Source: an uncultured Clostridium sp. (GTDB taxonomy: Bacteria > Bacillota > Clostridia > TANB77 > CAG-508). Taken from it: 64,000 nucleotides of DNA. The position numbers were made by a program, and so were the translations under genes. Of the stretch, positions 15,563-53,736 are shown in pieces. Every line of letters starts with the position of its first letter. Position 1 is the first letter of the stretch. Location of the stretch: positions 15,215-79,214 of the forward strand of contig CAOKGO010000001.1 of the NCBI GenBank assembly GCA_948468045.1. The letters are read 5' to 3'. The notes beneath the pieces were generated by a model that worked only from the letters and a program-made list of their open reading frames with translations, did not search any database and had not been told where the DNA came from.

Positions 15563-15712
15563 TTTTAATCATTCCTTTCATTAAATGATTTACTCTTTTA
15601 AATTTAGTCTGTTACAATATAGTTATCCTATAATTTTTTAAAAGTATTACTACTTATTATTTCTTAAGAAAATCTCGTTTGACAAAAATAAAAAATCTGT
15701 GTATAATATAGA

Positions 15713-15806
15713 TAGAAAATGAGATTTACAGACAATGTGGCTACCACATATTATTGTAATAACAACACATTACTCCGTCAAAAGCAAATGTGTTGTTTTA
15801 TTTATT
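15713..15806 (+). ncRNA. Candidate antitoxin-type small RNA of convergent module 1
   Basis: Promoter is TTGACA (15679..15684), a 17-nt spacer ending in TGTG, then TATAAT (15702..15707). Terminator is AACAACACAT..ATGTGTTGTT plus a T-run (15761..15806), shared with the opposing peptide gene. Confidence 0.55.
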
Positions 15807-15903
15807 CCTTATTAATCCAAATTATGTATATAATCGTCAATAAGGCTACGTTTACAGTTAGGGAAAATCCCAAAGTATATATTAAAAATAATATAAATCC
15901 CAT
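15802..15903 (-). CDS. 33-aa hydrophobic peptide, type I toxin-like (MGFILFLIYTLGFSLTVNVALLTIIYIIWINKE)
   Basis: Strong SD GAGGTGGTG 5 nt before the ATG. Own promoter is TTGCAT-17-TATAGT (16009..16014 / 15986..15991). Convergent with the sRNA. Paralogues are at 16769 and 53162. Confidence 0.6.
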   Translation of the reverse strand: MGFILFLIYTLGFSLTVNVALLTIIYIIWINKE

Positions 15904-16487
15904 AAACACCACCTCACTCTCTCATAGCCAAAGCTATGTAGTAAAGTGGCAACACACATTGCTTGTCCCATTTCCTATATCTAATACTATATATTATTTA
16001 AATATAGAATGCAAGCAAACAATGTGAATTTATACAATTATTTGTAATTTTATAAGTAAAAAACAATAACTAAAGAAATCATCTATTCCTTTTATTTAAA
16101 TGGCAATATATACAAAGTTAATGAAATATATTAATCTTCTAGCATTTTATATGTATATTGTAATAGTTTAGTTCTCTTTCAAAATTCACTACTTTATTTA
16201 AAATTTAATATATTAAATTTTAACTTGTATCAAGAAACCTTATTAATCAACTCCTTGCAATATCATTTAGCAGTCTCATTTGATATTGCTAAAATGATAT
16301 CATAAATATACATATTTATTAAATAAGATTTCATAATATTTTTTGACATTCTCATAAAAGTTTTTTATACATATAAAATCATTTTTTGATTTTTCAAGTG
16401 ATGAAACCCTTGAAAATACTGCATTCTTATTTCAACATCAAATATATAAAAAACCGAGAAAACATTGATATTTCAACGTTTTCTCGA

Positions 16488-16504
16488 TTTTTCTTTGGAG
16501 GCGA
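16488..16504. repeat. 17-nt direct repeat TTTTTCTTTGGAGGCGA (distal copy of the tRNA-Cys 3' end)
   Basis: Identical to 18094..18110, which covers the last 9 nt of tRNA-Cys plus 8 nt of flank. Confidence 0.7.
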
Positions 16505-16681
16505 CAGTCTACACGACTAACCTCAAACCTATTCCTACAACTAGCTTTCAAAATTTATTATCCACTTTTTATAACAATTTTATAACATTTGATTTAATTT
16601 TATATACCATAGTGTAACACACTATAACACACCTTTTAAAATCATATTTGACATTTATTAAAATTCTGTGTATAATAGAGA

Positions 16682-16775
16682 TAGAAAATAAGAACGTACA
16701 GAAATGTGCGTTACCAAATATCATTGATATACACCACATTGCCGACCAAAGCAAAATGTGGTGTATTTTTATTGT
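16682..16775 (+). ncRNA. Candidate antitoxin-type small RNA of convergent module 2
   Basis: Promoter is TTGACA (16648..16653), 17 nt, TATAAT (16671..16676). Terminator is ATACACCACAT..ATGTGGTGTAT plus a T-run. Confidence 0.55.
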
Positions 16776-16876
16776 TCCCTATTAGATAGCATTATGTATA
16801 TAACACTTAATAAGGCAACGTTTATAGTTATTGAAATCATAAATCCTATTATTAAGAACGCTAAAAAATCTAACAT
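16769..16876 (-). CDS. 35-aa hydrophobic peptide, type I toxin-like (MLDFLAFLIIGFMISITINVALLSVIYIMLSNREQ)
   Basis: SD GGAGGTGGTG. Promoter is TTGTAT-17-TATAGT (16986..16991 / 16963..16968). Shares the NVALL motif with the 15802 and 53162 peptides. Confidence 0.6.
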   Translation of the reverse strand: MLDFLAFLIIGFMISITINVALLSVIYIMLSNREQ

Positions 16877-17093
16877 ATAAACACCACCTCCAATCTCCCA
16901 ACAAAAGTTGAGGAATTAAAGGTAACACTCACATCTACTTTTCTTATTTTCTATTAACATTTACTATATACTATATTTTTATAAAATACAAGCGAACAAA
17001 CTAAATAATTTAATCTCAATTTATTCTATTTAGCTTGCTATTTTACATTCTTTAAATTTTATTATATAATGTGATATAAAAAGGTGATTAATA

Positions 17094-17940
17094 ATGGAAA
17101 GTTTAATAAGTGGTGATGTATTAGAACCAATTAGTGATTTAGGAATTGTATTACTAGATAAAATAGAAAAAGCAACTGGATGGATTTTTTTCTACTACAA
17201 CAGCTAAAAAAGAAGGATATAAAAATATAATTGAAGAAATATCTAAAAGAGATGATATAAATCCAATAGATAGAGCAGTCATAATAAGTAATTTTAGAAA
17301 GATAAAAAGAGAACATAAAAATAAAACTCAAATAGTTGATAAAGCTATCTTATTGTTAGAAAAAGGAGATAACCCTGAAAAATTAGATAATGATTGGGTA
17401 TTAAGATTTTTTGAATTTTGTAAGAATGTAAGTAATGAAGATTTACAATATGTATGGGCTAAAATATTGGCTAATGAGTGTAAAGAAAATTCTAATAATT
17501 CATTTAAACTTTTAAATACAATATCTGAAATTTCAAATAATGAAATTAATCTGATAAGAAAGATATTAAAAGAATGTAATTATGGCATAAGAAATTTTGA
17601 AGCTATAGGTATTATTTGTATAAAAAATGAATATTTAGAAGACATAGATATAAAATATGATGAAATTATAAAGCTTGAAGACTTTGGGATAATGAAAAGA
17701 GAAATTACTACATTGCAAGATGAAATTTCATTTGACTTAGAAAATGAAATAATAAAGTTTATTAGAAAGCCAAAAAAGAAAGGCCATTTAAATCTTATTA
17801 AATATGCTAATTTTTATAGATTTACTCATATAGGTATGGAGATAATAGAACTAATAAATGAAGAAATAAGTGGAAACCAATTTAAAAAATTAGAGAAAGC
17901 TTTTGACTATGAATACAATGTAATGTTAGAAAAGAAATAA
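17094..17940 (+). pseudogene. DUF2806-like protein gene interrupted by a +1 shift inside a T7 run (17185..17191)
   Basis: ATG 17094 reads MESLISGDVLEPISDLGIVLLDKIEKATGWIF and then stops. The next frame continues STTTAKKEGYKNIIEE.. into ORF 17353..17940 (DNDWVLRFFEFCKNVSNEDLQYVWAKILANE). No CGG is involved. Confidence 0.55.
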
Positions 17941-18093
17941 TTTTATAACATTTTTTAACATATTCGATTTGTTTTTTATAACAATTTTATAACATCTAGT
18001 TTGAACCTTTAAAACTAATGTGATAATAATGTGATAAATATAAAAACAGTATTCATTTCAAAACCTTGAAATATGCTGTTTTTGCTTGTTTGG

Positions 18094-18110
18094 TTTTTCT
18101 TTGGAGGCGA
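18094..18110. repeat. 17-nt direct repeat TTTTTCTTTGGAGGCGA (proximal copy, overlaps the tRNA-Cys 3' end)
   Basis: Identical to 16488..16504. Confidence 0.7.
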
Positions 18111-18175
18111 GTGTGGGAGTCGGACCCACCATCAGAGTTTTGCAGACTCGTGCCTTACCGCTTGGCTAACTCGCC
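18102..18175 (-). tRNA. tRNA-Cys (anticodon GCA), CCA encoded
   Basis: Manual cloverleaf: acceptor GGCGAGT/ACTCGCC, anticodon loop CTGCAAA, T-stem GTGGG/CCCAC, 74 nt. The T-loop reads TCCGACT (C at position 55). Confidence 0.85.
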
Positions 18176-18199
18176 AAATACTACTACCATAGCAGTTTT

Positions 18200-18273
18200 T
18201 GGAGCAGGTAACGAGAATCGAACTCGTAACTAAACCTTGGCAAGGTTTCATTTTACCACTAAACTATACCTGC
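18200..18273 (-). tRNA. tRNA-Gly (anticodon GCC), CCA encoded
   Basis: Acceptor GCAGGTA/TACCTGC, anticodon arm AAACC-TTGCCAA-GGTTT, T-arm ACGAG-TTCGATT-CTCGT, 74 nt. Confidence 0.9.
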
Positions 18274-18472
18274 ACTTTTATAAAATTTTCAAAGATTGAC
18301 TTTCGCCTTGCCAAGGCTACGTTTTTCTTCTACTAATTCCATTGTATTCATGATTAAGCTGTTTTATTCCTAATGCATTCATAATAATAACAAATTTATG
18401 AACAATTGTCAAGGAAACAACTATTTAACTTTTATTTTTTAATTAAACAGTTGTAACCTTTCTCAAAAAATT

Positions 18473-18514
18473 CATTTTGGGCACTTCAGTGCCTGTCCCA
18501 ATTATGCCCAAATG
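18473..18514 (-). terminator. GGGAC-core hairpin with a different stem (CATTTTGGGCA/TGCCCAAATG, core CCTGTCCC on plus strand), terminator of topA
   Basis: Inverted repeat followed by a U-run on the minus strand. Confidence 0.6.
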
Positions 18515-18522
18515 TGTTTTAG

Positions 18523-20616
18523 TTATTTCTTTTTGGTTCTTTTTTTAGCTGTCTTAGTTGTTTTGGATGTTTTTGTTGTTTTTCTTGGCTTTTTGGTTGT
18601 TTCTTTTTTTATTTCTTCTGCTTCTTCTGGATTCCACTTTTCTCCTTTTTTTGGCTTGTTCCATGAGATGTAGTCACATGATGCTGGGTTGTTTTCACAT
18701 ATGTAGTAATTTCTTTTTCTTTTTGTTTTTCTTACTTGTACTGTTGCTCCACATTTTGGACATGGTACGTCTATTGTTTCTATTATTGGTTTTGCGTTTT
18801 TACATTCAGGATATCCTGGACATGCTAAAAATTTGCCATATCTTCCAAATTTGTATACCATCATTCTTCCGCATTTTTCGCATTGTACGTCTGATACTTC
18901 GTCTACTAATTCTACGTGTTCTAGTTCTTTTTCTACTTTTTCTATTTCTTTTTCAAATGGCCCATAGAATTCTCTTATCATTTTTTTCCATTGTTCTTTT
19001 CCATTTGCTATTTCATCAAATTCGTTTTCTATTTTTGCTGTGAATTCTACATTTATTACGTCTGTGAAGTTTTCTGTTAATAGTTTGTTTACAATTCTTC
19101 CAAGCTCTGTTGGATGTAATTGTTTTTGTACTTTTTCTATATATCTTCTTTCTAGTATTGTTGTGATAGTTGGCGAGTATGTACTTGGTCTACCTATTTC
19201 TTTTTCTTCTAATGCTTTTACTAAGCTTGCTTCTGTGTATCTTGGTGGTGGTTCTGTAAAGCTTTGTTTTGGATTTAGTTTTTTTAGTAATAACTCTTGT
19301 TTTTCTTTTAGGTCTGGTAACATTCCTTGCATTTCTTGCTCTTGTGCATCTGTCCCCTCTACATATAAAGTCATAAATCCTTGAAAACGTATGGTTTGTC
19401 CGTTTGCTTTAAATGTATAATTGTTTGCATCTATTGAAACTGCCATCGTGTCATATATTGCTGCTGACATTTGACTTGCCATAAAACGATTGTATATTAG
19501 TTTGTATAGTTTGTATTGATCTTTGCTTAAATAGTCTTTTATGCTTTCTGGTTCTAAGTCTGCATAAGTAGGTCTTATACCCTCATGTGCATCTTGTGCA
19601 TCTTTATTGGTTTTGTAATATCTATTTTCATAGTATTTTTCACCATAGGTTGCTACTATATGGCTTTTTGCTGCTGCTCTTGCTTCTTCTGATATTCTTG
19701 TTGAGTCTGTTCTCATGTATGTTATTAAACCAACTGTGCCTTTTTCTGGCATTTTGACTCCTTCATATAGACCTTGTGCTATTGACATTGTTTTCTTTAG
19801 TGTAAATCCTAGTTTTCTTGATGCTTCTTGTTGCATTGTACTTGTTGTAAATGGTGGAGCAGGATTTCTTTTCTTTTCTCCTCTTTTTACTTCTTGTACT
19901 ATATATTTGGCTTGTTTTAAGTCTTTTAAAATTTTATTCATTTCTTCCTCAGAGTGAACTTCTAGCTTTTTTCCGTCTTTTCCATGAAATCTTGATTCAA
20001 ATTCTTTTTTGCTGTCTTTGTCTTGTAGATTTGCATATAAATTCCAGTATTCTTCTGGTTTGAAGTTTTCTATTTCTTCTTCTCTGTCTACTATTAATTT
20101 TACTGCTACTGATTGTACTCTTCCAGCTGATAGACCTCTTCTTACTTTTTTCCATAATACTGGACTCATTTTGTAACCTACTATTCTATCTAATACACGC
20201 CTTGCTTGTTGTGCATCTACTAAGTTGATGTCAATGTCTCTTGGTTCTTTTATTGCTTTTTGTACAGCATTTTTTGTTATTTCGTTAAATGTTACTCTTG
20301 TTATCTTATTTTTTTCCTCGTCTAATAAAGTGGCTAAATGCCATGCTATTGCTTCCCCCTCACGGTCAGGGTCAGTTGCGATATATATTTTTTTTGCTTG
20401 TTTAGCATCTTTTTTTAGGCTTTTTATTAAATCTCCTTTTCCTCTAATGTTGATGTATTCTGGTTCAAAGTCATGTTCTATATCTATTCCCATTTTTGAT
20501 TTTGGTAAGTCTCTGATGTGTCCCATAGATGCTACTACTTTTGTGCTTCCACCTAAGAATTTTTTTATGGTATTAGCTTTTGCTGGTGATTCCACTATTA
20601 CTAATTTATCTGCCAT
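18523..20616 (-). CDS. topA: DNA topoisomerase I
   Basis: 697 aa. TOPRIM start MADKLVIVESPAKA, C-terminal zinc ribbons (CEKCGRMMV.., CPKCG..) and a lysine-rich tail. Confidence 0.95.
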   Translation of the reverse strand: MADKLVIVESPAKANTIKKFLGGSTKVVASMGHIRDLPKSKMGIDIEHDFEPEYINIRGKGDLIKSLKKDAKQAKKIYIATDPDREGEAIAWHLATLLDEEKNKITRVTFNEITKNAVQKAIKEPRDIDINLVDAQQARRVLDRIVGYKMSPVLWKKVRRGLSAGRVQSVAVKLIVDREEEIENFKPEEYWNLYANLQDKDSKKEFESRFHGKDGKKLEVHSEEEMNKILKDLKQAKYIVQEVKRGEKKRNPAPPFTTSTMQQEASRKLGFTLKKTMSIAQGLYEGVKMPEKGTVGLITYMRTDSTRISEEARAAAKSHIVATYGEKYYENRYYKTNKDAQDAHEGIRPTYADLEPESIKDYLSKDQYKLYKLIYNRFMASQMSAAIYDTMAVSIDANNYTFKANGQTIRFQGFMTLYVEGTDAQEQEMQGMLPDLKEKQELLLKKLNPKQSFTEPPPRYTEASLVKALEEKEIGRPSTYSPTITTILERRYIEKVQKQLHPTELGRIVNKLLTENFTDVINVEFTAKIENEFDEIANGKEQWKKMIREFYGPFEKEIEKVEKELEHVELVDEVSDVQCEKCGRMMVYKFGRYGKFLACPGYPECKNAKPIIETIDVPCPKCGATVQVRKTKRKRNYYICENNPASCDYISWNKPKKGEKWNPEEAEEIKKETTKKPRKTTKTSKTTKTAKKRTKKK

Positions 20617-20682
20617 GTAATCCTCCTTATTTTTGCTTCTTCTTAGTATTCTAGCTTACTTTTCTACATTTTGCAAGCTTTT

Positions 20683-20997
20683 TTATGCAAATTTCACATT
20701 AAAGTCACTTAATACATCTTCTACTGCTACTGGTGTAACTTCACTTTCCTTTAATATTTTTAGTAATTTTTCTATTTTTGTTTCGTCATTTGTTAGGTAT
20801 TGTATCTTTTTATTTTCTATTCTTATACTTTCTTTTTTATATTCCGTTTTTACAATATAAATTCCAAATTTTGCTTTTTGTTGTTTTTCTGCTTCTTTAT
20901 TTGTAATTTTATAGTATGCTAGTTGAATGGGATAATGTATGCCAACCTCTTTTAATAATTTTGGATTCATAAATGTGCTACTGAAAAACGTTTTCAT
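20683..20997 (-). CDS. Hypothetical protein
   Basis: 104-aa ORF; no motif recognised. Confidence 0.45.
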   Translation of the reverse strand: MKTFFSSTFMNPKLLKEVGIHYPIQLAYYKITNKEAEKQQKAKFGIYIVKTEYKKESIRIENKKIQYLTNDETKIEKLLKILKESEVTPVAVEDVLSDFNVKFA

Positions 20998-21187
20998 TTA
21001 TTTTTCTCCTTTGTAAAAATTTTCCATCGTTTATGATACTACGTTTTATATCGCTTTTCAAGCACTTTTCACCGCAATTTTCGCTATAATATCTTCTCTT
21101 TTTACAATATTTTCCATTTTAATTGCGGATTCATGTTTTTATGACTTCGATTTGAATGTTTTGTATGTATGGTTTGACTTTTTATAT

Positions 21188-21258
21188 AAATTTGCTTTAG
21201 TAAATTTGTGTATAATGTATTGAGGTTATAGGAAAACCTAATTTTTTCCTATAACCTC
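21188..21258. repeat. Partial copy (H2 and H3 hairpins) of the composite intergenic repeat
   Basis: AAATTTGCTTTAGTAAATTT followed by GAGGTTATAGGAAAA..TTTTTCCTATAACCTC. Confidence 0.5.
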
Positions 21259-21287
21259 AAGATGGAGTTTTGCTATTAAAACTCTCT

Positions 21288-22154
21288 TTATTGTTGTTTC
21301 TTTAGTTGACAATATAATTCTGTAATTGTTGCTGCATTGTATGGATTGACATATAATATTCCTAATAATCCAAAAGTTAAAACTGATAAGAAGTACCATC
21401 CAAAAAAAGAGATGTCTAAAATAAATGTTTTCCATTTGTTTCCTTTCATCATTTGCTTAGAAAGTGCAAATGCTTCTTTTCTTGTGATTTTTGGGTTTTC
21501 TGCTAATATATATGGTATCATTCTGTATTCATATGTTTTTATAACTCCACCTATTATAGTTAAATACCAAAGTGCATTATATATATTCCTTAGAAGCATT
21601 ATACTTGCTATGTTCCACCAATGTTCTTTTTTAAATATTATTCCTATTACATTTATTTTAGTTCCACTTTCATTTCTTGCTTGTATGAAATATTTTCTGC
21701 CACCTACAATTAATGGATCTGCTATTAATATTGTAAAAGCAAAAGAAATTATAGCTCCAATACAAAGTAAAATTCCTAATTTTGTTTCATTTAGTTCAAA
21801 TAGATTTATGGCATCCCACACTTTAAAAATGTATTTTTGAGATTTTGTAACGCTGTTTAAATTTGCTTCAATAGCTTCAAGTGCTTTTATTTGTGTCTCA
21901 TTTAAAGTTTGTTTTATATTTTCTTCACTTAAAATTAATTCTGCTTCTCTTATGTCTTGTATTTGTGTTTTGCTTTTTTCTTTGTATAGTATATAATTAG
22001 GATTTATAGAGTCTTCTGATTGCCATACACCAATAATAGATGTTCCAAATTCGCCTGTTAGTAAGGCTAATAAGAAACATACTACAATTGCTGTCCAATA
22101 GTTTTTATATACTACTTTTTTTGCATTATCTTTTAGTTCTTTTCTATTCCACAT
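21288..22154 (-). CDS. DUF975-like integral membrane protein
   Basis: Start MWNRKELKDNAKKVVYKNYWTAIVVCFLLALL and multiple TM segments. Confidence 0.6.
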   Translation of the reverse strand: MWNRKELKDNAKKVVYKNYWTAIVVCFLLALLTGEFGTSIIGVWQSEDSINPNYILYKEKSKTQIQDIREAELILSEENIKQTLNETQIKALEAIEANLNSVTKSQKYIFKVWDAINLFELNETKLGILLCIGAIISFAFTILIADPLIVGGRKYFIQARNESGTKINVIGIIFKKEHWWNIASIMLLRNIYNALWYLTIIGGVIKTYEYRMIPYILAENPKITRKEAFALSKQMMKGNKWKTFILDISFFGWYFLSVLTFGLLGILYVNPYNAATITELYCQLKKQQ

Positions 22155-22166
22155 AGATTTCTCCTA

Positions 22167-22781
22167 TTATTTAAAAAATATATTTAATATATTGTTTTGA
22201 TACATTACTTTTCCTAAAGATGATTTATCTAAACTTTCATTTGCTATGTTATTAGGATTAATTTGTCCTGGTATTGATAAAATTAAAAGCATTACATATA
22301 TAATAAAAATTCCTCTTAAAATTCCATATATCATTCCACCTGTTTTGTTTAGTTGGTCAATAATTGGAAGTTTTGCAATAGCATCTGCAATAACTGTTAC
22401 AAATTTCAAAACTATTTGTACTACTACAAATAATACAATCATTGTACTTCCTCTTACTATATTTATTGATAAATTTTTTGCTGTTTGTGGTAACATACCA
22501 TTTTTTGCTGTTTCTAGTATTTCGTTTGCTTCTTCATTTTTACTTCCATTTTCTTGTATCATTTCATTCGCTTTTTCATAAATTGATTTTTCGATAGTTT
22601 CATCAATTTGTGTGTTATTTATTACAAAATTAGAAATCGGTTGATATAATACAAATGTTATTACTATTGAAATTACAAATGCACATAAACCTATTGCTAG
22701 TTTTACTAATCCCTTTTTGTATGCTAAAAAAGTTGATAGTAATACAATTCCTATAATTATTAAATCTACTATTATTCCCAT
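22167..22781 (-). CDS. CvpA-family membrane protein
   Basis: MGIIVDLIIIGIVLLSTFLAYKKGLVK.. with four TM segments. Confidence 0.65.
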   Translation of the reverse strand: MGIIVDLIIIGIVLLSTFLAYKKGLVKLAIGLCAFVISIVITFVLYQPISNFVINNTQIDETIEKSIYEKANEMIQENGSKNEEANEILETAKNGMLPQTAKNLSINIVRGSTMIVLFVVVQIVLKFVTVIADAIAKLPIIDQLNKTGGMIYGILRGIFIIYVMLLILSIPGQINPNNIANESLDKSSLGKVMYQNNILNIFFK

Positions 22782-22822
22782 TTTAATATCATCCTTTCTT
22801 TAATTGTAATTATTTTTCAACT

Positions 22823-24010: not shown

Positions 24011-24233
24011 GGTTTTTCTCCATTTCTTATATATATTAAAATTGTGGTTATTTTTATACTTTTCTTTATTGTTTTTTGTTACTTATGTTATATCAGTTTT
24101 TTATGTTTTTTTCAAGGCTTTAGGGAATTTATTTTTTGATTTTTAGTTCAATTTTTATCTATTTTTTTGCTAACTACAATTTTTTCTAAAATAGGAGATA
24201 TAAAAATATTTGCATTCAAAAGGTAATTATGTT

Positions 24234-25268: not shown

Positions 25269-25284
25269 AGTGCTCCTATCTTTT

Positions 25285-28966: not shown

Positions 28967-29043
<77 letters not shown>

Positions 29044-29487: not shown

Positions 29488-29549
29488 GCTATTCAATAAT
29501 ATTATTGAATATAAGTTGACTTTTTTATTTTTTTTCAGTATAATAATTA

Positions 29550-29648
29550 TAGAAGATGAACGACCACAGTAATGTGGCGTGTCGCTAAATATTGTTTAAA
29601 AAATTTTTAAATACATCTCTAACGACCAAGCAGAGATGTGTTTTTTTC
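29550..29648 (+). ncRNA. Candidate antitoxin-type small RNA of convergent module 4
   Basis: Promoter is TTGACT (29516..29521), 17 nt, TATAAT (29539..29544). Terminator is ACATCTCT..AGAGATGT plus T7 (about 29613..29648). Confidence 0.5.
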
Positions 29649-29771
29649 GTTGTCTAATTTTCTTATTGTAACAAAAAGTGCCACAAATAAGGCAACAGCG
29701 ACAACAGTTACCATTGCAAGTTCTATAAATAGTATGTATATAAAAGCCAAATAAACTTGTTCAAATAACAT
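29619..29771 (-). CDS. 50-aa hydrophobic peptide, type I toxin-like (MLFEQVYLAFIYILFIELAMVTVVAVALFVALFVTIRKLDNEKNTSLLGR)
   Basis: SD GAAAGGGGG. Promoter is TTGACT-17-TATAAT (29860..29865 / 29837..29842). The 3' end overlaps the sRNA terminator. Confidence 0.55.
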   Translation of the reverse strand: MLFEQVYLAFIYILFIELAMVTVVAVALFVALFVTIRKLDNEKNTSLLGR

Positions 29772-30025
29772 ATGCATCGCCCCCTTTCATCAAGAAAGCG
29801 ACACTCCACACTCTGTTTTGCTCATCTTCTAGTAAAATTATACAATAGTCATACATCGAAGTCAATCTAATTTACGAAAATTTGTTTTTATAATTATAAT
29901 ATGACCATATTTTGATAATTTGATCTTTCCTATACAATAAGCTCTATCTAATATATTTTCAATTTATTATCTTCTTTTTTCATTTCACTGCGATATACGA
30001 GCAATTTAGTATTTATATCTGTAAA

Positions 30026-32247: not shown

Positions 32248-32263
32248 TTACTCCTCCTTAACT

Positions 32264-42716: not shown

Positions 42717-42720
42717 ACAA

Positions 42721-44552: not shown

Positions 44553-44623
44553 ACAAAAAACCACCTTTATAGTAGTTTTTACAAATATTGGTGGCTTTAT
44601 ACATATTTGTTATAGATTTGATA

Positions 44624-45679: not shown

Positions 45680-45728
45680 AATAATTTCATTCCTTCTTTC
45701 TGCATATATTGGTTGAAAAATTATTTTT

Positions 45729-46397
45729 CTATTTTAAATCTTCTAATGCCTTTTTAGCTGCTTCCATATGTGCTTCTTTTTTACTTTTACCCTCTCCACT
45801 TGCAAGTAGTTTTCCATTACAACTTACTTGTGCTTCAAAGTATTTATCATGGTCTGGTCCTTTTTCTTGTGTTATTTTATATTCTATTTTTACTTCTCCA
45901 TGTTCTTGAAGTTTTTCTTGTAGTACTGTTTTGTAATCTCTATCTCCTACATGTTTTGTGGCTTGCTCAATTTCATCTTTTAAATTGTCTATAATGAATT
46001 TTTCTGCCTTTTCTATGCCTCCATCTAAGAAAATTGCAGCAATTACTGCTTCTACACTATCTGCTAAAATTGCTGGTCGCTTTTCTCCACCTGTTTTTTT
46101 CTCTGATTTACCTAAATATAAGAAATCACTAAAATTATGCAGTGTAGCTATTTTATATAAACTCTTTTCGCAAACAACTGCTGCTCTAACTTTAGTCATT
46201 TCTCCTTCTTGTAATTTTGGATAGGTTTTAAAAAGATATTTGCTAGAGATAAACTCTAATATGCTGTCACCTAGAAATTCTAGTTTTTCATTACTGTCTA
46301 CTTTGTTTTCATATGCATAAGATGTGTGTGTTAATGCTTTTTTTAGTAAGTTTTTGTCTTTAAATACATATCCTATACTTTCTTCTATTTTGTCCAT
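45729..46397 (-). CDS. rnc: Ribonuclease III
   Basis: NEKLEFLGDSILE signature and a C-terminal dsRBD (GPDHDKYFEAQV..GEGKSKKEAHMEAAKKAL). Confidence 0.9.
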   Translation of the reverse strand: MDKIEESIGYVFKDKNLLKKALTHTSYAYENKVDSNEKLEFLGDSILEFISSKYLFKTYPKLQEGEMTKVRAAVVCEKSLYKIATLHNFSDFLYLGKSEKKTGGEKRPAILADSVEAVIAAIFLDGGIEKAEKFIIDNLKDEIEQATKHVGDRDYKTVLQEKLQEHGEVKIEYKITQEKGPDHDKYFEAQVSCNGKLLASGEGKSKKEAHMEAAKKALEDLK

Positions 46398-46493
46398 TTT
46401 TTCACCTCGCTTATATTATATACTATTTTGTGAATTTTGCAAGTGGCAATTGCTTCAAGTTTTTATTTTCCGCAATCAAAGGTTACATAAAAA

Positions 46494-46523
46494 TGTCGCA
46501 AAAGAAACGTCCCCAACGCGACA
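46494..46523. terminator. GGGAC-core hairpin (TGTCGC/GCGACA, core ACGTCCCC) followed by tandem AACGCGACAC x2
   Basis: Inverted repeat; sibling of 11558 and 39077. Confidence 0.5.
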
Positions 46524-46629
46524 CAACGCGACACGTAATGAAACTGTAAAGAACATTTAATATTACTGAAATAGATTATTTGGCTTTTTGTAGTATAATT
46601 AATTTAGTTTATACTAAGGAGATTTGTAT

Positions 46630-47733
46630 ATGAATGTTGAAACAGAATTAAAAAAAGATGGAATTGAAGTTATAGAAATGTTAAATACATTGAAGATTAA
46701 TTCTATTGCAAGAAGTATATCTCAAAAAATTTGTGATGCTTTCCCTGAATATGGTTTTAATCAAAATGATTTGTTTATTAAATTATCTAGGCTTAATATG
46801 TATAAGGCGAAAATGCCTGATGGGATGGCTGAAGCTAATTATTTTTATAAAAATACCTCAATTTATTTTAATGAACATATTGCAGATGAGGATTTAGAAG
46901 AATTTGCTATTCATGAGTGTATTCATTATCTTCAAGAGGTAAAAGATAAGAAGAATTATTTAATTAGAATGGGACTTTGTGATTATACTGAATTTAAGGT
47001 TTATGGATTGGGACTAAATGAAGCTGCTGTTCAATTGATTTCTTCTAAAATTAATGGTATTCCTAAAGAGTATGTTAAATATTTTGGTATTAATTTTGAA
47101 ACAAATAGTCCATCTTACTATCCTTTGGAGTGTTGTTTGGTTAATCAATTGGCTTATATTGTAGGTGAAGATGTTCTTTTTGAAAGTACTTTAAAAAGTA
47201 CAGATAGTTTTAAATTGGCTTTTTCTGAACTTACTTCTCCTAAGGTATATATGGCTATTCAAAATGCTGTTGATGACATTCTTTACCATGAAGAAGAAAT
47301 TATTAAGATTAATAATAAGATTGCTCAAATTGATGATAGAAATAAAAGAGTTGATGGCATGATTAAGAAAATTGATGAATTAAAAAATGAAATCACTTTG
47401 ACTTTTATGAGAACTCAAAATTTAATTATTTCTAGCTATTTTGATACTGCCTTTGAGCGTATTGTAGATTTAGAGGGTGTTGAGGCATTTAGAAAAAAAT
47501 TATATACATTTAGAGATTATCTTGGGTTTACAGAGGGTTATACTTTTTTTAATGATTATTATATTTCAAAGATGGAAGAGTTGGAAGCTAAATATAATTT
47601 AATAGAAAATGGACAATTTGAGACTGCTTTAAAAGTTATTACTAAAAGAGATAATATGTTTATTCGTATTTTAAAGGCTTTCAAGAAACTTATTGGTGTT
47701 AGCCAAAAAGAAAAAGAAAATATACCTAATTAA
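46630..47733 (+). CDS. Hypothetical protein with an HExxH motif (possible metallopeptidase)
   Basis: AIHECIHYLQ. AGGAG is 8 nt before ATG 46630. Confidence 0.5.
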   Translation: MNVETELKKDGIEVIEMLNTLKINSIARSISQKICDAFPEYGFNQNDLFIKLSRLNMYKAKMPDGMAEANYFYKNTSIYFNEHIADEDLEEFAIHECIHYLQEVKDKKNYLIRMGLCDYTEFKVYGLGLNEAAVQLISSKINGIPKEYVKYFGINFETNSPSYYPLECCLVNQLAYIVGEDVLFESTLKSTDSFKLAFSELTSPKVYMAIQNAVDDILYHEEEIIKINNKIAQIDDRNKRVDGMIKKIDELKNEITLTFMRTQNLIISSYFDTAFERIVDLEGVEAFRKKLYTFRDYLGFTEGYTFFNDYYISKMEELEAKYNLIENGQFETALKVITKRDNMFIRILKAFKKLIGVSQKEKENIPN

Positions 47734-47753
47734 GTTACAAAACAAAAGGATGG

Positions 47754-48755
47754 GTGGAGATTGCTTTGAAAAATTTTAAAGTTGCTATTGTTGGTGCAAC
47801 AGGTCTTGTAGGTAGGTCTGTTATACAAGTATTAAATGAGAAAAATTTGCCTATTGAAAGTTTTGGTTTATTTGCTACTAAAAAATCTGCTGGAGAATTT
47901 TTTTCTATTTGTGGTAAAGAATATGTTGTTGAAGAATTAACTGAAAATTCTTTTGATAGTGGTTTTGATTTTGCTATTTTTTCAGCTGGTGGAGAAACTT
48001 CTAAAAAGTTTGCTCCAATTGCTGCTTCAAAGGATTGTATTGTTGTTGATAATAGCAGCTATTTTCGTATGAATGATGATGTGCCTCTTGTAGTTCCAGA
48101 AGTTAATTTAGAAGATGCTTTTTTAAATCATGGAATTATTGCTAATCCTAATTGTTCAACTATTCAAGCAATGCTTCCTTTGAAAGCATTGGAAGATAAA
48201 TATCGCATTAAAAGAGTGGTTTATTCTACTTACCAAGCTGTATCTGGGGCTGGAAAAGACGCTTTATGTGATTTGGAAAATATCGATAATAGTAAGCCTT
48301 TGAAAAAGTTTCCATATCCTATTTTTAATAATTGTTTGCCACATATTGATGTATTTGTGGAAAATGGTTATTCAAAAGAAGAAATGAAAATGATTGAAGA
48401 AACTAAAAAAATTTTGCATAGGCCAGATTTAAAGGTTACTGCTACAACTGTAAGGGTTCCTGTTCAAAATTCTCATTCTGAATCAATTAATTTGGAATTT
48501 GAAAAAGATTTTGAGATGTCTGATTTGCTTTCTACTTTAAGAAGTTTTCCTAATTTGATTTTACAAGATGATTTAAGTCAAAATTTATACCCTATGGCTA
48601 TTAATGCAACTGGTCATGATGAGGTTTTTGTTGGTAGGGTTCGTCGTGATGAAAGTATAAGTTCTGGCATAAACCTTTGGGTTGTTGCTGATAATATTCG
48701 CAAAGGGGCTGCTAGTAATGCAATTCAAATTGTGGAAAAATTGATGGAGAGATAG
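47754..48755 (+). CDS. asd: Aspartate-semialdehyde dehydrogenase (start uncertain: GTG 47754 or TTG 47766)
   Basis: VAIVGATGLVG, NPNCSTI and SGAG motifs. Confidence 0.9.
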   Translation: MEIALKNFKVAIVGATGLVGRSVIQVLNEKNLPIESFGLFATKKSAGEFFSICGKEYVVEELTENSFDSGFDFAIFSAGGETSKKFAPIAASKDCIVVDNSSYFRMNDDVPLVVPEVNLEDAFLNHGIIANPNCSTIQAMLPLKALEDKYRIKRVVYSTYQAVSGAGKDALCDLENIDNSKPLKKFPYPIFNNCLPHIDVFVENGYSKEEMKMIEETKKILHRPDLKVTATTVRVPVQNSHSESINLEFEKDFEMSDLLSTLRSFPNLILQDDLSQNLYPMAINATGHDEVFVGRVRRDESISSGINLWVVADNIRKGAASNAIQIVEKLMER

Positions 48756-48827
48756 TTTTCTTGTATGTTTTATAATAAACCTCTTAAATTATGAAAAGTT
48801 TTATAATTCATAATTTAAGAGGTTATT

Positions 48828-50592
48828 TTATATAGCAGTTAAAGTTACTGGAGCTTTAATAGAAACTCCATAGGTGCTGTTAGTTCTTTGTAATTCAATA
48901 CGAATATAATGTTTTCCTAAAAGTGAAGAAACATCTAAGTCTAAAGATATATTAGCATCCTCGCGACTATCATACCAATTAAAATCTTGATATATACTTC
49001 TTTCAACATTCCCTGCTGAATTTAGAGCCTTTAAAGTAATTTTTCCTGCACTCCCTGTATCTGACCATCCAATACATCTTAATTTTATAAAAGCAAAATT
49101 TGTTAAATCAAACATTTCATTACTTTGCATATAAGCTAAATTTTCTGTTGAATATAAATTTATACCATATTTAGTATCCTCCTCATGACTCCAACCATCT
49201 GGCCATTTGTCATATTTACCGTGGAGATATCCCGCTTCTATAAGAAAGACTAAATATGGAAACTGTTTGAGCAAAATATACACCATTTGATACTGTTTCT
49301 GTTTTATTTTCTTCATTATCACAACTTAATATATGCAAATACAAACTTCCTCTTGTAGTTGATGTTATAGGAATACTTGATGTTATTCCTGATAGTGTTG
49401 AAGCTGTATCCCAGTTGCTTGCATTAATTCCTAATTTACTTTCTGAATTGTTTATAATGTATTTGCAATTTTCTATATTTATACCACTTTGGTCATCACT
49501 TACTTCTACTGTTGCTGTTACTGTATTTCCTATATCTACTCTTGTTGATGTTAATGTTATTTTTGCATCATTTGGTGGCGTTTTATCAACTTCGTTTACA
49601 ATAATTGCTTGTTTTGATATAGATTCCTTTTTATTTCCTGCATTATCTACTGTTAAGATATGCAAGTAATAAGCTCCTGGATTTTCACATTTTAAAGTTA
49701 AATCTTCTGGATTTGTTGTAAAGTTTCCACCTGTGTATTCATTTTCATTTGTTCCAATTTCTTCTTTTTGGGTTGTATATATCCACATACAATTTTTTAT
49801 ATTTACATTGCTTACTCCGTTATCGCTTTGACTTACTGTTGCTGTAATGGCTTTTGCTGTGTTTGTTATTTTCCCACTAAAATTAATTGTTGCATCATTG
49901 GGAAGTTCTTTGTCAATATTTGTTATATTTTCTGTTGCATTTCCACCTATCTCGTCTAGCTCATTTATTAATCTTGCAAAGATTGGACCATTTTGTCCTA
50001 CTAATATTGGTTTTTCATAATTTGTCCATTTGCTTCCATCTGTTGAATACTGCAAAGTATATTTTTTTAGTTCTATGTTGACTATTATTTCTACTGTTAT
50101 ATCTTTATTTGTGTATTTTTCTTTTGGAATTAGGTTAAATGTTATATCACTTTCTTGTAAGTCTGGTGGTGGATTTTGTCCTTGCGTTCCTATGTATTTT
50201 ATTTCATTTTCTGTTATTTTATATACATATTTTTCTTTTGTTACTACATTTATAATTTCATCATTTTTTCTATTAACTTCCGATTCTTTAAATTTATCTT
50301 CTTTTTTTATTTCTTTTGTAAATTCATCTAAATATGTTTTTGTATCCCAATTATTTATAATTTTATTTGGTTGAAGTCCATTTCCTATTATTTTTAGAAT
50401 TTCTTCATATTCTTTCTTGTTGGTTTCTTCTTTAGCTATAGTTGACTTTGATAAAATTCCATTTTCTCCTGTTATGCTCACAATTGATATTCCTGCAAGT
50501 ATTAGCAATACTATTATTGTAATCACTAATGCTATTAAAGTAATACCTTTGCTTGTTTTTTCTTCGTTTTTTGTTTTTATTACATTAATCAT
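48828..50592 (-). CDS. Large pilin-like protein, paralogue of 30026..31517; continuous only if the C of an in-frame CGG is skipped
   Basis: N-terminus KGITLIALVITIIVLLILAGISI. CCA [C]GGT gives ..SYRSGISP-G-KYDKWPDGWSHEEDTKYG.. joining ORFs 49216..50592 and 48828..49322. Confidence 0.7.
49219..49221 (-). other. In-frame CGG at +1 site (pilin-like gene 2; 0 frame reads CGG TAA)
   Basis: (50592-49221) is divisible by 3. GGT at 49220 is in phase with ORF 48828..49322. Confidence 0.75.
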
Positions 50593-50933
50593 TAATATAA
50601 TTCTCCTTTATTTCTTTTGTTCTACTATTTTTAGAAAATAGCTGTAATAATTTCTTTAAATATTGTATCAATATTCAAAATTATGTCAATAAGTTTTTAT
50701 GCCTTGTCTTGTTCTCTCAAAAATTGCCCAATAATTAAAAAGAATATTTGGATTTATGTGTGAGACTAACAATTTTAGTGATATAATACAGTAAAAGAAA
50801 AAAATTATTCATAATAAGAGGGTATCCTAAAATGAACTCTTACCATTATAGTTAAATAAAACGAAAATTTATGGCATACTAAAATTCATCCATAAATCTT
50901 CGTTCTTGTAAATTAATAGGCTATATTTATTTT

Positions 50934-52108
50934 TCATTTTATTAATTTTTCATGTAGTTCTTCTATTATTGTATTTTCTATTTTTTTAACTATTATTTCT
51001 ATTTTTGATTGGGTTAAGTTCATATCTGTTATTTGTATGTTATGTTTTTGTAGAATTTTTATTGCTCTATTTAATACTGTATTGTCTTGTGTTATTCCAT
51101 AACCTACAATGCTTAGTTTTTCAATTTCTTTTTGCCTTAACAAATAATTTGGATAACTACTGTCTAATAGTTCTTGTACTTTGTTTTGTTCTGATTTTTT
51201 TATTCTAAATTCAATTTTTTGCTTTTCTTTTTGGAAGTTTTCTACAATTATATTGTTTTGTAATAAATTTTGATAGATATTATAAAATTCTTTTTCTTCT
51301 ATTTCTTCTTCTTTTTGCATTTCGATAATTACTAGTTGGTTACTTTTTACTATACTTTTTACTTCTGAACTTTCAATTTGTTCACAGATTTTTGTTCCGG
51401 CCTTTGTTTGTGAATGTTGATTTTGCAATTATACTACAATTGAATTTTTTTCCCATTTGTATACATCTGTTGTGCAAAACTTTTGCTCCACTGTCTGAGA
51501 TTTCCTGCATTTCGTCAAATGATATTTCGTCTAATCTTTTTGCCATTGTAATCATATTTGGGTCTGCTGAATAAATTCCGTCTACATCTGAAAATATATA
51601 GCATTTGTCTGCTTTTAATGCTACTTGCAATGCTACTGCTGTTGTGTCTGAACCTCCTCTTCCTAATGTTGTGATATCATCTTTTTCGTCAATGCCTTGA
51701 AATCCTGCTACTACTATGATGTTTCCTTTTTCAAGTTCTTGTTCCATTCTGTTTATTGCAATTTGCTCAATTTTTGCACTTGTATGTACTGAATTGGTTT
51801 TTATTCCAGCTTGCCATCCTGTTAATGATACTGCTCCGATATCCTTTTCGGTTTAGTAATATTGCTAGTTTTGATGCTGTTATTTGCTCTCCTGTCGATA
51901 AGAGCATATCCATTTCTCTTTCATTTGGAATTGCTGATAGTTCTTGTGCTTCTTTTATTAGTTGATTTGTTGTTTTTCCTTGTGCAGATACGACAACTGC
52001 TACATTTTTTACTTCTTTTTTTATGCTAATGATTTTTTCTGCAACAACATTTAATTTTATGTTGTCTGCTACTGAGGTTCCTCCGAATTTTAATATGACT
52101 GTGTTCAT
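50934..52108 (-). CDS. lysC: Aspartate kinase; continuous only if the C of two in-frame CGG codons is skipped
   Basis: The gene is split into three ORFs. KFGGTSV start, junctions ..NRKGY-G-AVSLTGWQAGIKT.. and ..STFTNKG-G-TKICEQIES.., GRGGSDTTA motif, C-terminal ACT region. RBS AAAGGTG precedes ATG 52108. Confidence 0.85.
51397..51399 (-). other. In-frame CGG at +1 site (lysC, second site, GGC [C]GGA)
   Basis: (51747-51399) is divisible by 3. GGA at 51398 is in phase with ORF 50934..51428. Confidence 0.85.
51836..51838 (-). other. In-frame CGG at +1 site (lysC, first site, TAT [C]GGA)
   Basis: (52117-51838) is divisible by 3. GGA at 51837 is in phase with ORF 51382..51747. Confidence 0.85.
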
Positions 52109-52656
52109 TTTCGTCACACCTTTGTTATTTTAAGTTACTAAAATGTAATATGATGTTTAGTAATTGCTTTTTACTTTTTAGTTACTTAATAAAACTCTAT
52201 CTAATTTTAAATAGTGTTATTCTTCTGTTGCTATTATAGTATATTTTTTATTTAGTTTCAAGGATTAACAAAAAATTAACAAAAAACTATTCTGCTTTAA
52301 ATTCTCCTGTAAGAATACTTCCTTTTGTTACTGTTCCTTGTCCTCCTGCTCCTCCACCAGTTGCTTGTCCTGCTATACCAATTAATCCTTTAGATGCATT
52401 TCCACCATTAGCTGTAATTGTATCAATATTCAAAATTATGTCAATGAATTTTTACCTCTTCTCTTATTTCTCGCAAAAAGAAATAGGTTTGGAGGCGTAA
52501 ACAAAATCAGAAGAACCTATAAATTCAGTAAAATAGCCATATTCAAGACTTCGTATTCCTTAACGTACAGCTATTGTACAGCATATTTTAAAATTATTGC
52601 TTAAAAACAGTATAAAGCATTACTTTAGTATATTTATTAGTTTTTTTCTTCATAAT

Positions 52657-52965
52657 TTAGCTTAACCTTTTCACTCCATTATACTTATGGCAGTTTTCGT
52701 TTCCCCGACAACTTATTTTAGCCTTGTAAAATATATCTCCGTCAATACATACGTTTGGGCATTTTTGAATTTGTTCTATTTTATTACCTTCCTTTGCACC
52801 ATGAAAGTAAAGTAAAATATCATTTCCATTCTTTTTTATTCCAAAAGAAACTGGCACAATATATGGATAGTCATTTCCTCTAAAAGCAATTCTTAATACA
52901 TTACATCTTTCTAATACATCAACTATTTTGTTAAAATCATTAATTTCACGACTTTTTAATCTCAT
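52657..52965 (-). CDS. Pyridoxamine 5'-phosphate oxidase-family protein, apparently C-terminally truncated
   Basis: MRLKSREINDFNKIVDVLERCNVLRIAF..PYIVPVSFG..LYFHGAKEGNKI. All three frames stop within about 15 codons after the in-frame CGG at 52705..52707. Confidence 0.55.
   Translation of the reverse strand: MRLKSREINDFNKIVDVLERCNVLRIAFRGNDYPYIVPVSFGIKKNGNDILLYFHGAKEGNKIEQIQKCPNVCIDGDIFYKAKISCRGNENCHKYNGVKRLS
52705..52707 (-). other. In-frame CGG (PNPOx-family remnant); frame choice not decidable
   Basis: (52965-52707) is divisible by 3. The 0 and +1 frames both end shortly afterwards. Confidence 0.5.
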
Positions 52966-53065
52966 GATATAGCTCTCCTATAATTTTTTTATACTAATGC
53001 TTTTTAGTTAGTTAGTTATTTCAAAAATCATTTGACTTTTCCTAAAAATCTGTGTATAATATAGA

Positions 53066-53166
53066 TAGAAAATGAGAAACCATAGTCAAATATGGTTACC
53101 ACTTGTAAAAAGTAATAACGGCACATTCCCTTAGGTCAAAAAGTAGAATGTGCTGTTATTTTTATT
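53066..53166 (+). ncRNA. Candidate antitoxin-type small RNA of convergent module 3
   Basis: Promoter is TTGACT (53032..53037), 17 nt ending in TGTG, TATAAT (53055..53060). Terminator is AATAACGGCACATT..AATGTGCTGTTATT plus a T-run. Confidence 0.55.
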
Positions 53167-53275
53167 CCTTATCTATAATTTTATTAACATATTGTATGTA
53201 ACAAACTGTCAATAAGGCTACGTTTAGAGTAACTGATGCCATTAAGGCTAATATTAAGAATAGTATAAAACTCAT
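53162..53275 (-). CDS. 37-aa hydrophobic peptide, type I toxin-like (MSFILFLILALMASVTLNVALLTVCYIQYVNKIIDKE)
   Basis: SD GAGGTGGTG. Promoter is TTGTAT-17-TATAGT (53380..53385 / 53357..53362). Paralogue of 15802 and 16769. Confidence 0.6.
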   Translation of the reverse strand: MSFILFLILALMASVTLNVALLTVCYIQYVNKIIDKE

Positions 53276-53736
53276 AAACACCACCTCACTTTCTGATAGC
53301 AAGCTATCTAAGTCAAAGTGGCAACACAACTACTTATCTCATTTCTATCTTTAACTACTATACTACATATTTTATAATAATACAAGCGAACAAAAACAAA
53401 ATTTCGCATATTTTTATATTCCAATAAAGTAATAAATTTAATTTACAAAGTATACTATCAAAAAATCTAAATAAAGAGCAAGAAACTATTAAATAATAAT
53501 ATAGATATACAATAATTTATTAATAGTTATACTATAAGAATTTGCTTACATCAAAGTACAACAATTATACAGCAAATTTTTACTGAACTGTGGTAATCTA
53601 TGATAGACATCTATCTTCTAAAACAAAAATACTCCCTTAAAAAGAGAGTATTTCTGAAAAGAGAGTATTTCTGCATTTTGTACCTTTATGCAATAATATA
53701 TACTATTATATGATAATTGCTTAAAAGTACAGATTA

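Follow-up and report, generated by a model that had tools for sequence, protein, structure and literature searches.

Type I toxin-antitoxin systems are the main models for the silencing of a lethal message by RNA folding and an antisense RNA, and four loci in a 64,000-nt stretch of contig CAOKGO010000001.1 from an uncultured Clostridium sp. (assembly GCA_948468045.1, positions 15,215 to 79,214 of the forward strand; hereafter the window, to which all coordinates refer) raise a question about their design: why do the two convergent RNAs of one module begin with the same leader? We examined these four toxin/antisense-RNA modules, M1 to M4, in DNA of 28.8% G+C. In all of them the + strand carries a near-consensus promoter (TTGACA or TTGACT, a 17-nt spacer and TATAAT) followed by a predicted small RNA (sRNA) of ~90 nt ending in a hairpin and a U tract, and the - strand carries a second promoter, a ~75-nt leader, a strong Shine-Dalgarno (SD) sequence and a short hydrophobic open reading frame (ORF). 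The promoters are convergent, the sRNA gene sits on the 3' side of the toxin gene, and the two RNAs have in common a central hairpin that adjoins the toxin stop codon in M1 to M3 and encloses it in M4. The putative toxin ORFs (33-37 aa, and 50 aa in M4) encode a hydrophobic core with charged C-terminal tails (NKE, IDKE or RKLDNEKN). Judged by this layout, the modules are putative type I systems in which two mirror-image promoter-leader units flank a small hydrophobic-peptide gene and the central hairpin.

The four modules fall into two families, here called NVALL (the M1 to M3 type, with toxins of 33-37 aa sharing T-x-N-V-A-L-L) and EQVYL (the M4 type, with 50-aa toxins reading MLFEQVYL...KNTSLLGR). 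For NVALL, one genome per GTDB species was scanned with the three window peptides, yielding 239 confirmed relatives; 80 of these were fetched and, together with the window, provided 68 modules, of which 51 are non-redundant and 49-51 were used per test. For EQVYL, a metagenome scan and exact-protein look-ups gave 16-17 usable distinct modules, 11 of which entered the exact-match measure, and ~65 modules across both families form the base for statements on orientation and promoters; modules cited individually carry L numbers. All fetched carriers are uncultured gut Clostridia, where both families are abundant and unannotated. Toxins of neither family matched Pfam or NCBIfam models even at E <= 10, none of the 370 protein clusters related to the EQVYL toxin has a name or Pfam domain, and the M4 toxin had no match in a viral-contig scan. 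An Rfam scan of the window returned no antitoxin RNA family at gathering score, its matches being ornate large extremophilic (OLE) RNA and tRNAs; the region 15600-17100 searched at E <= 10 gave two weak unrelated matches, rox2 (E 3.5) and opuB (E 5.1), far under their gathering scores.

Both RNAs of a Module Share an Inverted Leader

The DNA just past each -10 box forms an inverted repeat in 4/4 window modules, so that both convergent transcripts open alike. An earlier note on this sequence had pointed out these repeats, and they lie where it placed them in all four modules, save that the + strand copy in M1, AGATAGAAAATGAGA, occupies 15710-15724, one base earlier than it gave. The likeness continues, as that note also held, past the first 14 nt and spans ~40-45 nt, comprising a purine-rich 5' motif, a middle part and an anti-Shine-Dalgarno (anti-SD) block. 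In M1 the sRNA arm (S arm, 15710..15749, +) opens with the motif and goes on to the hairpin ATGTGGCTACCACAT (15735-15749) with the anti-SD-like CTACCAC (15741-15747), and the toxin leader (T arm, 15941..15982, -) reads AGATATAGGAAATGGGA, then AAGCAATGTGTGTT (T-mid), then GCCACTTTACT, the cis anti-SD. The M2 motif ATAGAAAATAAGAA is identical at 14/14 positions between the arms (16681-16694 and the reverse complement of 16941-16954), M3 has its motif at 53063-53077 and as AGATAGAAATGAGA, the reverse complement of 53337-53350, and the two copies of TAGAAGATGA in M4 (29550-29559 and the reverse complement of 29822-29831) lie within a 22-nt repeat (82%), accompanied by a second repeat block, TGTGGCGTGTCGCT and AGCGACACTCCACA, at 29573-29586 and 29797-29810.

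By themselves, inverted repeats of 14 nt are common here (56 pairs in 1.5 kb), as short inverted repeats are in A+T-rich DNA, and the case therefore rests on fixed position and recurrence. The NVALL motif, ATAGGAAATGA or ATAGAAAATGAGA, begins 7 nt past the toxin -10 box in 39 of 51 modules and 4 nt past the sRNA -10 box in 43 of 51, and the order of elements is identical in both arms: 5' motif, a middle resembling ..CAGAAATGTG.., and GTTGCCAC or GTTACCAC. The shared leader recurs in 49-51 NVALL and 16-17 EQVYL modules. Exact same-sense matches shared by toxin leader and sRNA 5' domain have a mean maximum length of 10.3 nt in NVALL (49-51 modules) and 9.6 nt in EQVYL (11 modules), relative to 6.2 +/- 1.0 for shuffled sequences, and alignment of the NVALL arms over ~44 nt scores 15.4, with shuffled arms at 4.4 +/- 1.8. 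The -10 regions of the two units are similar as well, and differences between the arms are nearly all transitions (52 vs 3 transversions and, in the anti-SD block, 49 vs 1). The sRNA 5' domain is accordingly an inverted, same-sense copy of the toxin 5' untranslated region including its CCAC-type anti-SD, as the earlier note had proposed, and an inverted duplication is probably the origin of the two arms under any reading. M4 had there been taken as unrelated to the other modules, which does not hold at the RNA level: EQVYL sRNAs have the same layout as NVALL sRNAs (5' motif, CCACAG..GUGG hairpin, anti-SD block), and the two module families therefore share one RNA scaffold.

Three modules depart from this arrangement. 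L123 has the same toxin and leader as L124, and an ~85-bp deletion removes its sRNA 5' domain and -10 box, such that the central hairpin now adjoins the old -35 box; it is either a naturally occurring variant without an sRNA arm or a product of misassembly. L090 and L091 contain what is left of an EQVYL toxin, lacking an ATG and preceded by foreign DNA, and in L091 the 3' side of the remnant faces a convergent NVALL toxin leader and start, not an sRNA arm. These two look like rearranged or hybrid modules.

The Two Arms Vary Together

The earlier note had further claimed that the arms co-vary between modules, and alignment and permutation of the collected modules confirm it. NVALL sRNA arms score 15.4 against their own toxin arm and 12.8 against those of other modules (permutation p < 1e-4); in EQVYL the signal is stronger for the 5' motif, with a cognate score of 7.35 vs 4.87 for non-cognate arms (p < 5e-5) and the cognate arm being the best match in 10 of 17 modules. 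When the toxin arm is set against the complement of the sRNA arm as a helix over the motif and anti-SD blocks, NVALL modules form standard pairs at 95.0% of positions (90.5 +/- 0.5 when shuffled; 0/500), and both sides have changed in 9 of 21 pairs (shuffled 4.4 +/- 1.3, with 1/500 reaching 9); kinship of the sequences inflates such shuffle tests, the robust parts being this count of doubly changed pairs and the list of distinct events below. Sliding the register lowers pairing to 38-48%. The predicted duplex energy likewise favours cognate over non-cognate arms, at -36.9 vs -31.2 kcal/mol for NVALL and -44.8 vs -37.1 for EQVYL (each 0/5000 permutations).

Individual co-changes occur in both families. 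Among NVALL modules, L055 reads AAGTGAA in both arms against AAATGAA in its closest relatives, L076 carries TAAGAAATGAG in both, and M2 has AATAAGAA in both, its relative L024 carrying AGATGAGA in the toxin arm and AATGAGAA in the sRNA arm. Among EQVYL modules, GAAGACAGA stands in both arms of L081 (L118 has GAAGGCAGA / GAAGACAGA), GAAGTTAAGC, a transversion, in both arms of L120, AGATAAGC in both arms of L082, L085 and L089, and GAACAA in both arms of L092; further events are GAAGT(T)GAGC in L119 and GAAGG(A)TGAGA in L088. The window modules themselves carry three variants, AAUGAGA, AAUAAGA and GAAGAUGA, each in both arms of its module, and since the three coexist in one genome, the matching is module-specific and not host-specific.

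Pairing Partners of the Leader Blocks

To gain insight into what the matched blocks might do, we asked what each can pair with. The cis anti-SD of the toxin leader, GCCACUUUACU, pairs with AGUGAGGUGGU (mean z -2.4), which in M1 corresponds to the SD region GAGGTGGTG (15907..15915, -), and in M4 the segments GUGUCGCUUUC..GAAAGGGGGCGAUGC form a 13-pair SD-sequestering hairpin (GTGTCGCTTTC..GAAAGGGGGCGATGC, 29774-29804, -). In the consensus fold, UGUUUAUG at the start (GGU..UGUUUAUG) pairs with UAUAAACG (..GCC) inside the NVALL codons, which by this model would be a second, downstream lock on SD and start codon. The T-(I/V)-N-V-A-L-L codons (ACU AUA AAC GUA GCC UUA UU) are near-invariant in nucleotides in the three window NVALL ORFs and in L001-L080.

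T-mid is the complement of the toxin-strand central hairpin's 5' half and loop (in M1, 15955-15968 with 15776-15798, -). In NVALL this pairing is better in cognate than non-cognate combinations (-15.9 vs -14.0 kcal/mol; z -2.66; 0/5000 permutations reach the cognate mean) and shows compensatory exchange of AAGCAG/CUGCUU for AAGUAG/CUACUU (GCA/UGC to GUA/UAC); it is weaker in EQVYL (z -1.6). T-mid also repeats, in the same sense, the sRNA terminator's 3' half, and could act as an anti-terminator or a 5'-3' clamp.

The middle part of the sRNA folds a covarying hairpin of its own, hairpin 1 (-7.0 kcal/mol, mean z -2.8 in NVALL; -9.0, mean z -2.6 in EQVYL), and the equivalent segment of the toxin leader forms none (z -0.07). 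RNAalifold on a MAFFT alignment of the sRNAs recovered the terminator alone because indels misalign hairpin 1, which was therefore checked sequence by sequence. Together with the consensus promoter and a covarying terminator with U tract, this hairpin completes the predicted convergent ~90-nt sRNA. The central hairpin, in M1 AACAACACATT...AAATGTGTTGTT at 15761..15806, has compensatory changes across the family at 7 of 12 stem pairs and is followed in M1 by a T4AT3ATT tract on the sRNA (+) strand alone; its loop of more than 8 nt makes it invisible to the hairpin pattern scan.

Toxin mRNA terminated at the central hairpin offers no conserved partner for the 5' motif (RNAduplex with the first 14-16 nt; mean z +0.28 in NVALL and near zero in EQVYL), and longer RNAduplex runs, with the sRNA 5' domain set against the toxin 5' region, gave sprawling, uninformative structures. 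Complementarity to the toxin 5' motif exists solely on the toxin strand opposite the sRNA arm. Three other roles were considered for the motif and rejected. As a decoy start or mini-ORF it reads AUG-AGA-UAA/UAG in some toxin arms, but the frames are not conserved; its similarity to the toxin start-codon context or to the purine run upstream of the SD is confined to the main clade and absent from M2, L016 and the EQVYL clades; and pairing with the sRNA U tail, where any purine run gives 8 bp, leaves co-variants containing C or U unexplained.

A Proposed Fold-Back of the Toxin Transcript

We tentatively favour a model where the toxin transcript continues beyond the central hairpin and bends back to pair with its own 5' leader, and where the sRNA, antisense to the 3' strand of this fold, competes with the leader. 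The central hairpin would end the sRNA but stop the toxin strand poorly, and toxin transcripts would run on across the complement of the sRNA 5' domain; the resulting 3' strand would pair back onto the leader at both the 5' motif and the anti-SD block, burying the mRNA's 5' end and, in the EQVYL (M4) family, partly freeing the SD. This would amount to a long-distance 5'-3' helix like those of hok and aapA, corresponding also to the 5' upstream helix of par, and binding of the sRNA to the 3' strand would reopen the toxin 5' end and give a duplex of ~90 bp. As the exact antisense of the 3' strand, the sRNA is necessarily a same-sense look-alike of the leader and hence its competitor, and with the arms as two strands of one helix their co-variation would be ordinary compensatory evolution. 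A more specific version, possible but in our view doubtful, makes the sRNA an antitoxin by mimicry: a same-sense double of the leader that competes for the 3' fold-back strand and would switch the message between a closed, protected state and an open one that is degradable or translatable. What we infer here is how far the toxin transcript reaches in the 3' direction, that it folds back, and how this affects its stability or translation. A fold-back competing with the sRNA had been one of three roles suggested in the earlier note, and of these it fits the most observations, provided that toxin transcripts extend that far.

Besides the co-variation and the lack of another partner for the 5' motif, several features fit a longer toxin transcript of this kind. 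The differences between the arms, nearly all transitions, favour pairing in the toxin-strand sense: the toxin-strand helix is more pairable than that of the sRNA strand (95.0% vs 90.1%) and of lower predicted energy, at -36.9 vs -28.8 kcal/mol in NVALL (favoured in 48 of 49 modules) and -44.8 vs -37.9 in EQVYL (14 of 16). The predicted unpaired probability of the first 12 nt is 0.72 in the short mRNA, 0.05 in the extended one and 0.73 with the extension masked to mimic sRNA binding, and predicted SD accessibility in EQVYL is 0.19, 0.36 and 0.20 for the same three states. By a rough count, the eight positions after the central hairpin hold 5.2 U on the sRNA strand vs 3.1 on the toxin strand, with a background of ~2.95. 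Further on, the complement of sRNA hairpin 1 and the pyrimidine-rich complement of the motif resemble a terminator on the toxin strand (M4: 29578..29563), with 4.5/8 U and 6.5-6.9/8 pyrimidines in its tail. The outer edge of the repeat tracks the expected toxin start and not the sRNA start: where the toxin-side spacer is 7 nt, 27 of 38 modules lack any extra match, and where it is 8 nt, two extra nucleotides match in 7 of 10, placing the edge only 3 nt past the sRNA -10 box. Precedents for such a fold exist in the 5'-3' long-distance interactions of the hok and aapA mRNAs (PMC6733600) and in the 5'-end upstream helix that stabilises par RNA I (PMC7472228).

Other observations weigh against a fold-back. 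The central hairpin may terminate toxin transcripts well enough, and a convergent sRNA promoter of consensus strength would collide with read-through polymerases and should hinder them; the tail after the hairpin 1 complement, with its modest U content, makes a weak terminator at best. The strand asymmetry is present in non-cognate pairs too (-31.2 vs -25.1 kcal/mol) and is therefore an old family-level feature that stems from few ancestral differences and that other constraints on the toxin leader could cause; for the 14-nt motif alone it is small (~1 kcal/mol) and, in EQVYL, not significant. Predicted SD accessibility in NVALL is unmoved by the fold-back (0.15, 0.19 and 0.16 for the short, extended and blocked states). 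The motif is moreover conserved beyond what a helix needs, being nearly the same in both toxin families and varying almost wholly by A/G transitions, which suggests an added sequence-specific role such as factor binding or a property of the initial transcript.

Alternative Explanations for the Matched Arms

The readings that follow are not mutually exclusive with the fold-back or with one another. The arms could match by concerted evolution at the DNA level, a somewhat unlikely account in which template switching or short-patch gene conversion copies changes between the halves of an old inverted duplication, each block being kept by its own function in its own RNA and the matching itself being functionless. 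The arms are clearly paralogous over ~45 nt, the similarity of the -10 regions included, and identical co-changes of several nucleotides (GAAGACAGA in L081, GAAGTTAAGC in L120, an extra C in TGCTC in L084) are most simply seen as single copying events. L101, whose sRNA arm has GGAGTGTCGC like its own toxin arm where close relatives have GGCGTGTCGC, fits a recent homogenisation of a single base, and the mosaic of matching blocks around a differing middle is what patch repair between partly diverged repeats would leave. Against this, the spacer between -10 box and motif has never been homogenised, AATTA standing in nearly all EQVYL sRNA arms and in no toxin arm; copying does not predict differences that are near-exclusively transitions and biased to pairing compatible with a toxin-strand RNA; and arms that are short, imperfect and ~250 bp apart make a poor recombination substrate.

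Unlikely, too, is that the sRNA, tethered through its 3' overlap, closes the toxin ribosome-binding site in trans with its copied anti-SD, the arms being alike because both must pair with one site. The pairing of the cis anti-SD described above, including the M4 hairpin, speaks for it, and SprA1AS, a 3'-overlapping antitoxin that acts via a non-overlapping 5' domain, is a precedent (PMC4885055). The sRNA block also tracks the ribosome-binding site between families (R-CCAC with GGUGGU, GUGUCGCU with GGCGAUGC), and all variation in the anti-SD block is wobble-compatible with an SD of G and U only. This role, another of those raised by the earlier note, is plausible for the anti-SD block alone, given its 49:1 ratio of transitions and compatibility with GGUGGU. 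Pairing between the sRNA block and the SD in the initiation region is however short (5-8 bp, rarely 11) and barely above shuffles (mean z -0.66), and in EQVYL cognate partners pair no better with the ribosome-binding region than non-cognate ones (-13.65 vs -13.81 kcal/mol). L088 and L084 changed the block in both arms with the ribosome-binding site unchanged, the block of EQVYL sRNAs serves as the 3' strand of a hairpin within the sRNA itself, and the 5' motif, which shows the strongest co-variation, is left unexplained.

It is rather improbable that the purine-rich motif is where a single host factor, such as an Hfq-type chaperone, an RNase or the 30S subunit, binds or enters both RNAs, or that it is an operator or initial-transcribed element of both promoters. 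The motif is conserved across the two toxin families (AUAGGAAAUGAGA and UAGAAGAUGAGC), varies mostly by A/G exchange, keeps a fixed distance from each -10 box and is predicted to be single-stranded in short transcripts (0.72), all of which a factor site would explain; a single factor does not predict co-variation specific to each module, with three variants in one genome, and motif near-matches are not enriched elsewhere in the window (35 vs 31 expected). The shared operator put forward in the earlier note falters on the same ground, in that a fixed protein site would not change module by module.

Finally, inverted repeats flanking ~250 bp and identical modules in differing flanking DNA might suggest an invertible switch that turns the toxin segment from a strong promoter to a weak one and back, or the terminal repeats of a miniature mobile element, a notion that is barely credible since among ~65 modules no flipped arrangement occurs, the TTGACA-17-TGTGTATAAT promoter is always and the TGTTCGCTTG type never on the sRNA side, and the promoters, although located beyond the repeats, accompany the module in every case.

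Comparison with Known Type I Systems

The par locus of Enterococcus faecalis pAD1 and its family, encoding Fst (RNA I and RNA II), offers the closest comparison in layout: it has convergent promoters and a bidirectional terminator whose loops start the RNA interaction, direct repeats DRa and DRb that give complementary 5' regions, a 5' stem-loop that hides the SD and an upstream helix that hides the 5' end (PMC7472228). The present modules share with it the convergent promoters, a toxin of ~33 aa, a common central hairpin with a conserved loop, an intramolecular SD-hiding stem-loop and a helix involving the toxin mRNA 5' end, the last two being predictions here. The repeats, however, are inverted and the 5' regions alike, where those of par are direct and complementary. 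The same match measure applied to one pAD1-type par locus as a control returned a longest direct-repeat (antisense) match of 14 nt (GATTTAATGTCGTT) and a longest same-sense match of 5 nt; in the modules no par-like direct repeats were found, antisense matches of 6.8 nt (NVALL) and 5.9 nt (EQVYL) being at the shuffled level (6.2 +/- 1.0). The design is inverted relative to par, in agreement with the earlier note. Further differences from par are that the toxins lack the PXXXG motif, a proline in the hydrophobic segment and any Pfam match (Fst_toxin; Fst/Ldr superfamily), and that the U tract lies on the sRNA strand only.

With hok/Sok and aapA/IsoA the modules would share the logic of a full-length toxin mRNA closed by pairing of its ends, for which the evidence is covariation of the strands across homologues (PMC6733600). 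Strand covariation is strong in the present modules, and the place of the 3' strand in the toxin mRNA is what we infer. There, the antisense RNA covers the toxin mRNA's 5' part or translation start, and the message becomes active through trimming of its 3' end, whereas here the sRNA gene lies 3' of the toxin and its product would be antisense to the 3' strand of the proposed fold-back, as the competitor of the leader. With bsrG/SR4 and txpA/RatA (Bacillus subtilis) and sprG/SprF (Staphylococcus aureus) the modules have in common convergent genes and 3'-overlapping RNAs. Their antitoxins act through the 3' overlap by degradation, SR4 also altering the ribosome-binding site (PMC6563280, PMC4885055); the reviews describe no similarity between toxin leader and antitoxin, and the toxins are unrelated by Pfam and NCBIfam. 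SprA1/SprA1AS (Staphylococcus aureus) has a 3'-overlapping antitoxin whose non-overlapping 5' domain contacts the toxin translation start (PMC4885055) and is the model for anti-SD action in trans, but that domain is complementary to the toxin 5' region, as in par, whereas the domain described here is same-sense with its short complementarity to the SD. The arrangement differs from all the described type I arrangements compared.

[quoted passage not shown] If fold-back and mimicry were true, they would constitute a new antitoxin mode acting on a 5'-3' long-distance interaction instead of the ribosome-binding site, and an antitoxin gene could arise through inverted duplication of the promoter and leader of its toxin; if the DNA-level reading were true, the modules would be a clear example from nature of short, distant inverted repeats evolving in concert.

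Module Coordinates and Surroundings

The M1 sRNA promoter (15679..15707, +) matches the consensus at 12/12 positions (TTGACA, 17 nt, TATAAT, preceded by TGTG), and the toxin side comprises a 33-aa ORF, MGFILFLIYTLGFSLTVNVALLTIIYIIWINKE (15802..15903, -), and a promoter read directly and from the family alignment (15986..16014, -; TTGCAT, 17 nt, TATAGT). In M2 the sRNA promoter and S arm span 16648..16720 (+), with the promoter at 16648-16676 and the motif followed by the hairpin ACGTAC..GTGCGT and GTTACC; on the - strand are the 35-aa ORF MLDFLAFLIIGFMISITINVALLSVIYIMLSNREQ (16769..16876) and the leader and promoter (16900..16991), with a -10 box TATAGT at 16963-16968 and a -35 box TTGTAT at 16986-16991. 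The M3 sRNA promoter and S arm (53032..53105, +; promoter 53032-53060) continue after the motif with the hairpin AACCATA..TATGGTT and ACCAC, opposite the 37-aa ORF MSFILFLILALMASVTLNVALLTVCYIQYVNKIIDKE (53162..53275, -) and its leader and promoter (53300..53390, -). In M4 the corresponding + strand unit is at 29516..29590 (promoter 29516-29544), its motif being followed by the hairpin GACCACAGTAATGTGG and by GTGTCGCT; the 50-aa ORF (29619..29771, -) encodes the 5' half and loop of the central hairpin in its last codons, and the leader and promoter lie at 29772..29865 (-; promoter 29837-29865).

At and just upstream of the toxin -35 box, TGTTCGCTTG is conserved in both families and never found at sRNA promoters (16987-16996 and 53384-53393, -, in the window; L001-L097), and may mark a site for a regulator of the toxin side only. 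A promoter-like TTGACG-17-TACAAT (15753-15781, -; 10/12), whose -35 box falls within the M1 central hairpin loop, would yield a transcript complementary to the sRNA arm; as a third promoter of M1 it was rejected, such matches being at chance level in this A+T-rich DNA.

Paralogous modules often stand in tandem, within ~1-1.4 kb and in the same orientation, as in the window (15679-16014 and 16648-16991) and in L024, L029, L030, L031, L034 and L043. Where identical toxins occur in unrelated flanks, the spacer of the sRNA promoter has diverged and the -35 box, -10 box and transcribed part are kept. Between M1 and M2, a strong 20-pair hairpin with a T tract (16448-16493, -) is probably the terminator of a neighbouring transcript. 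A tRNA gene (28967-29040, +) lies ~480 nt upstream of M4 and two more (18105-18273) ~1.1 kb from M2, and a full-length OLE RNA (11577-12178, -; 351.7 bits) is found ~3.4 kb from M1.

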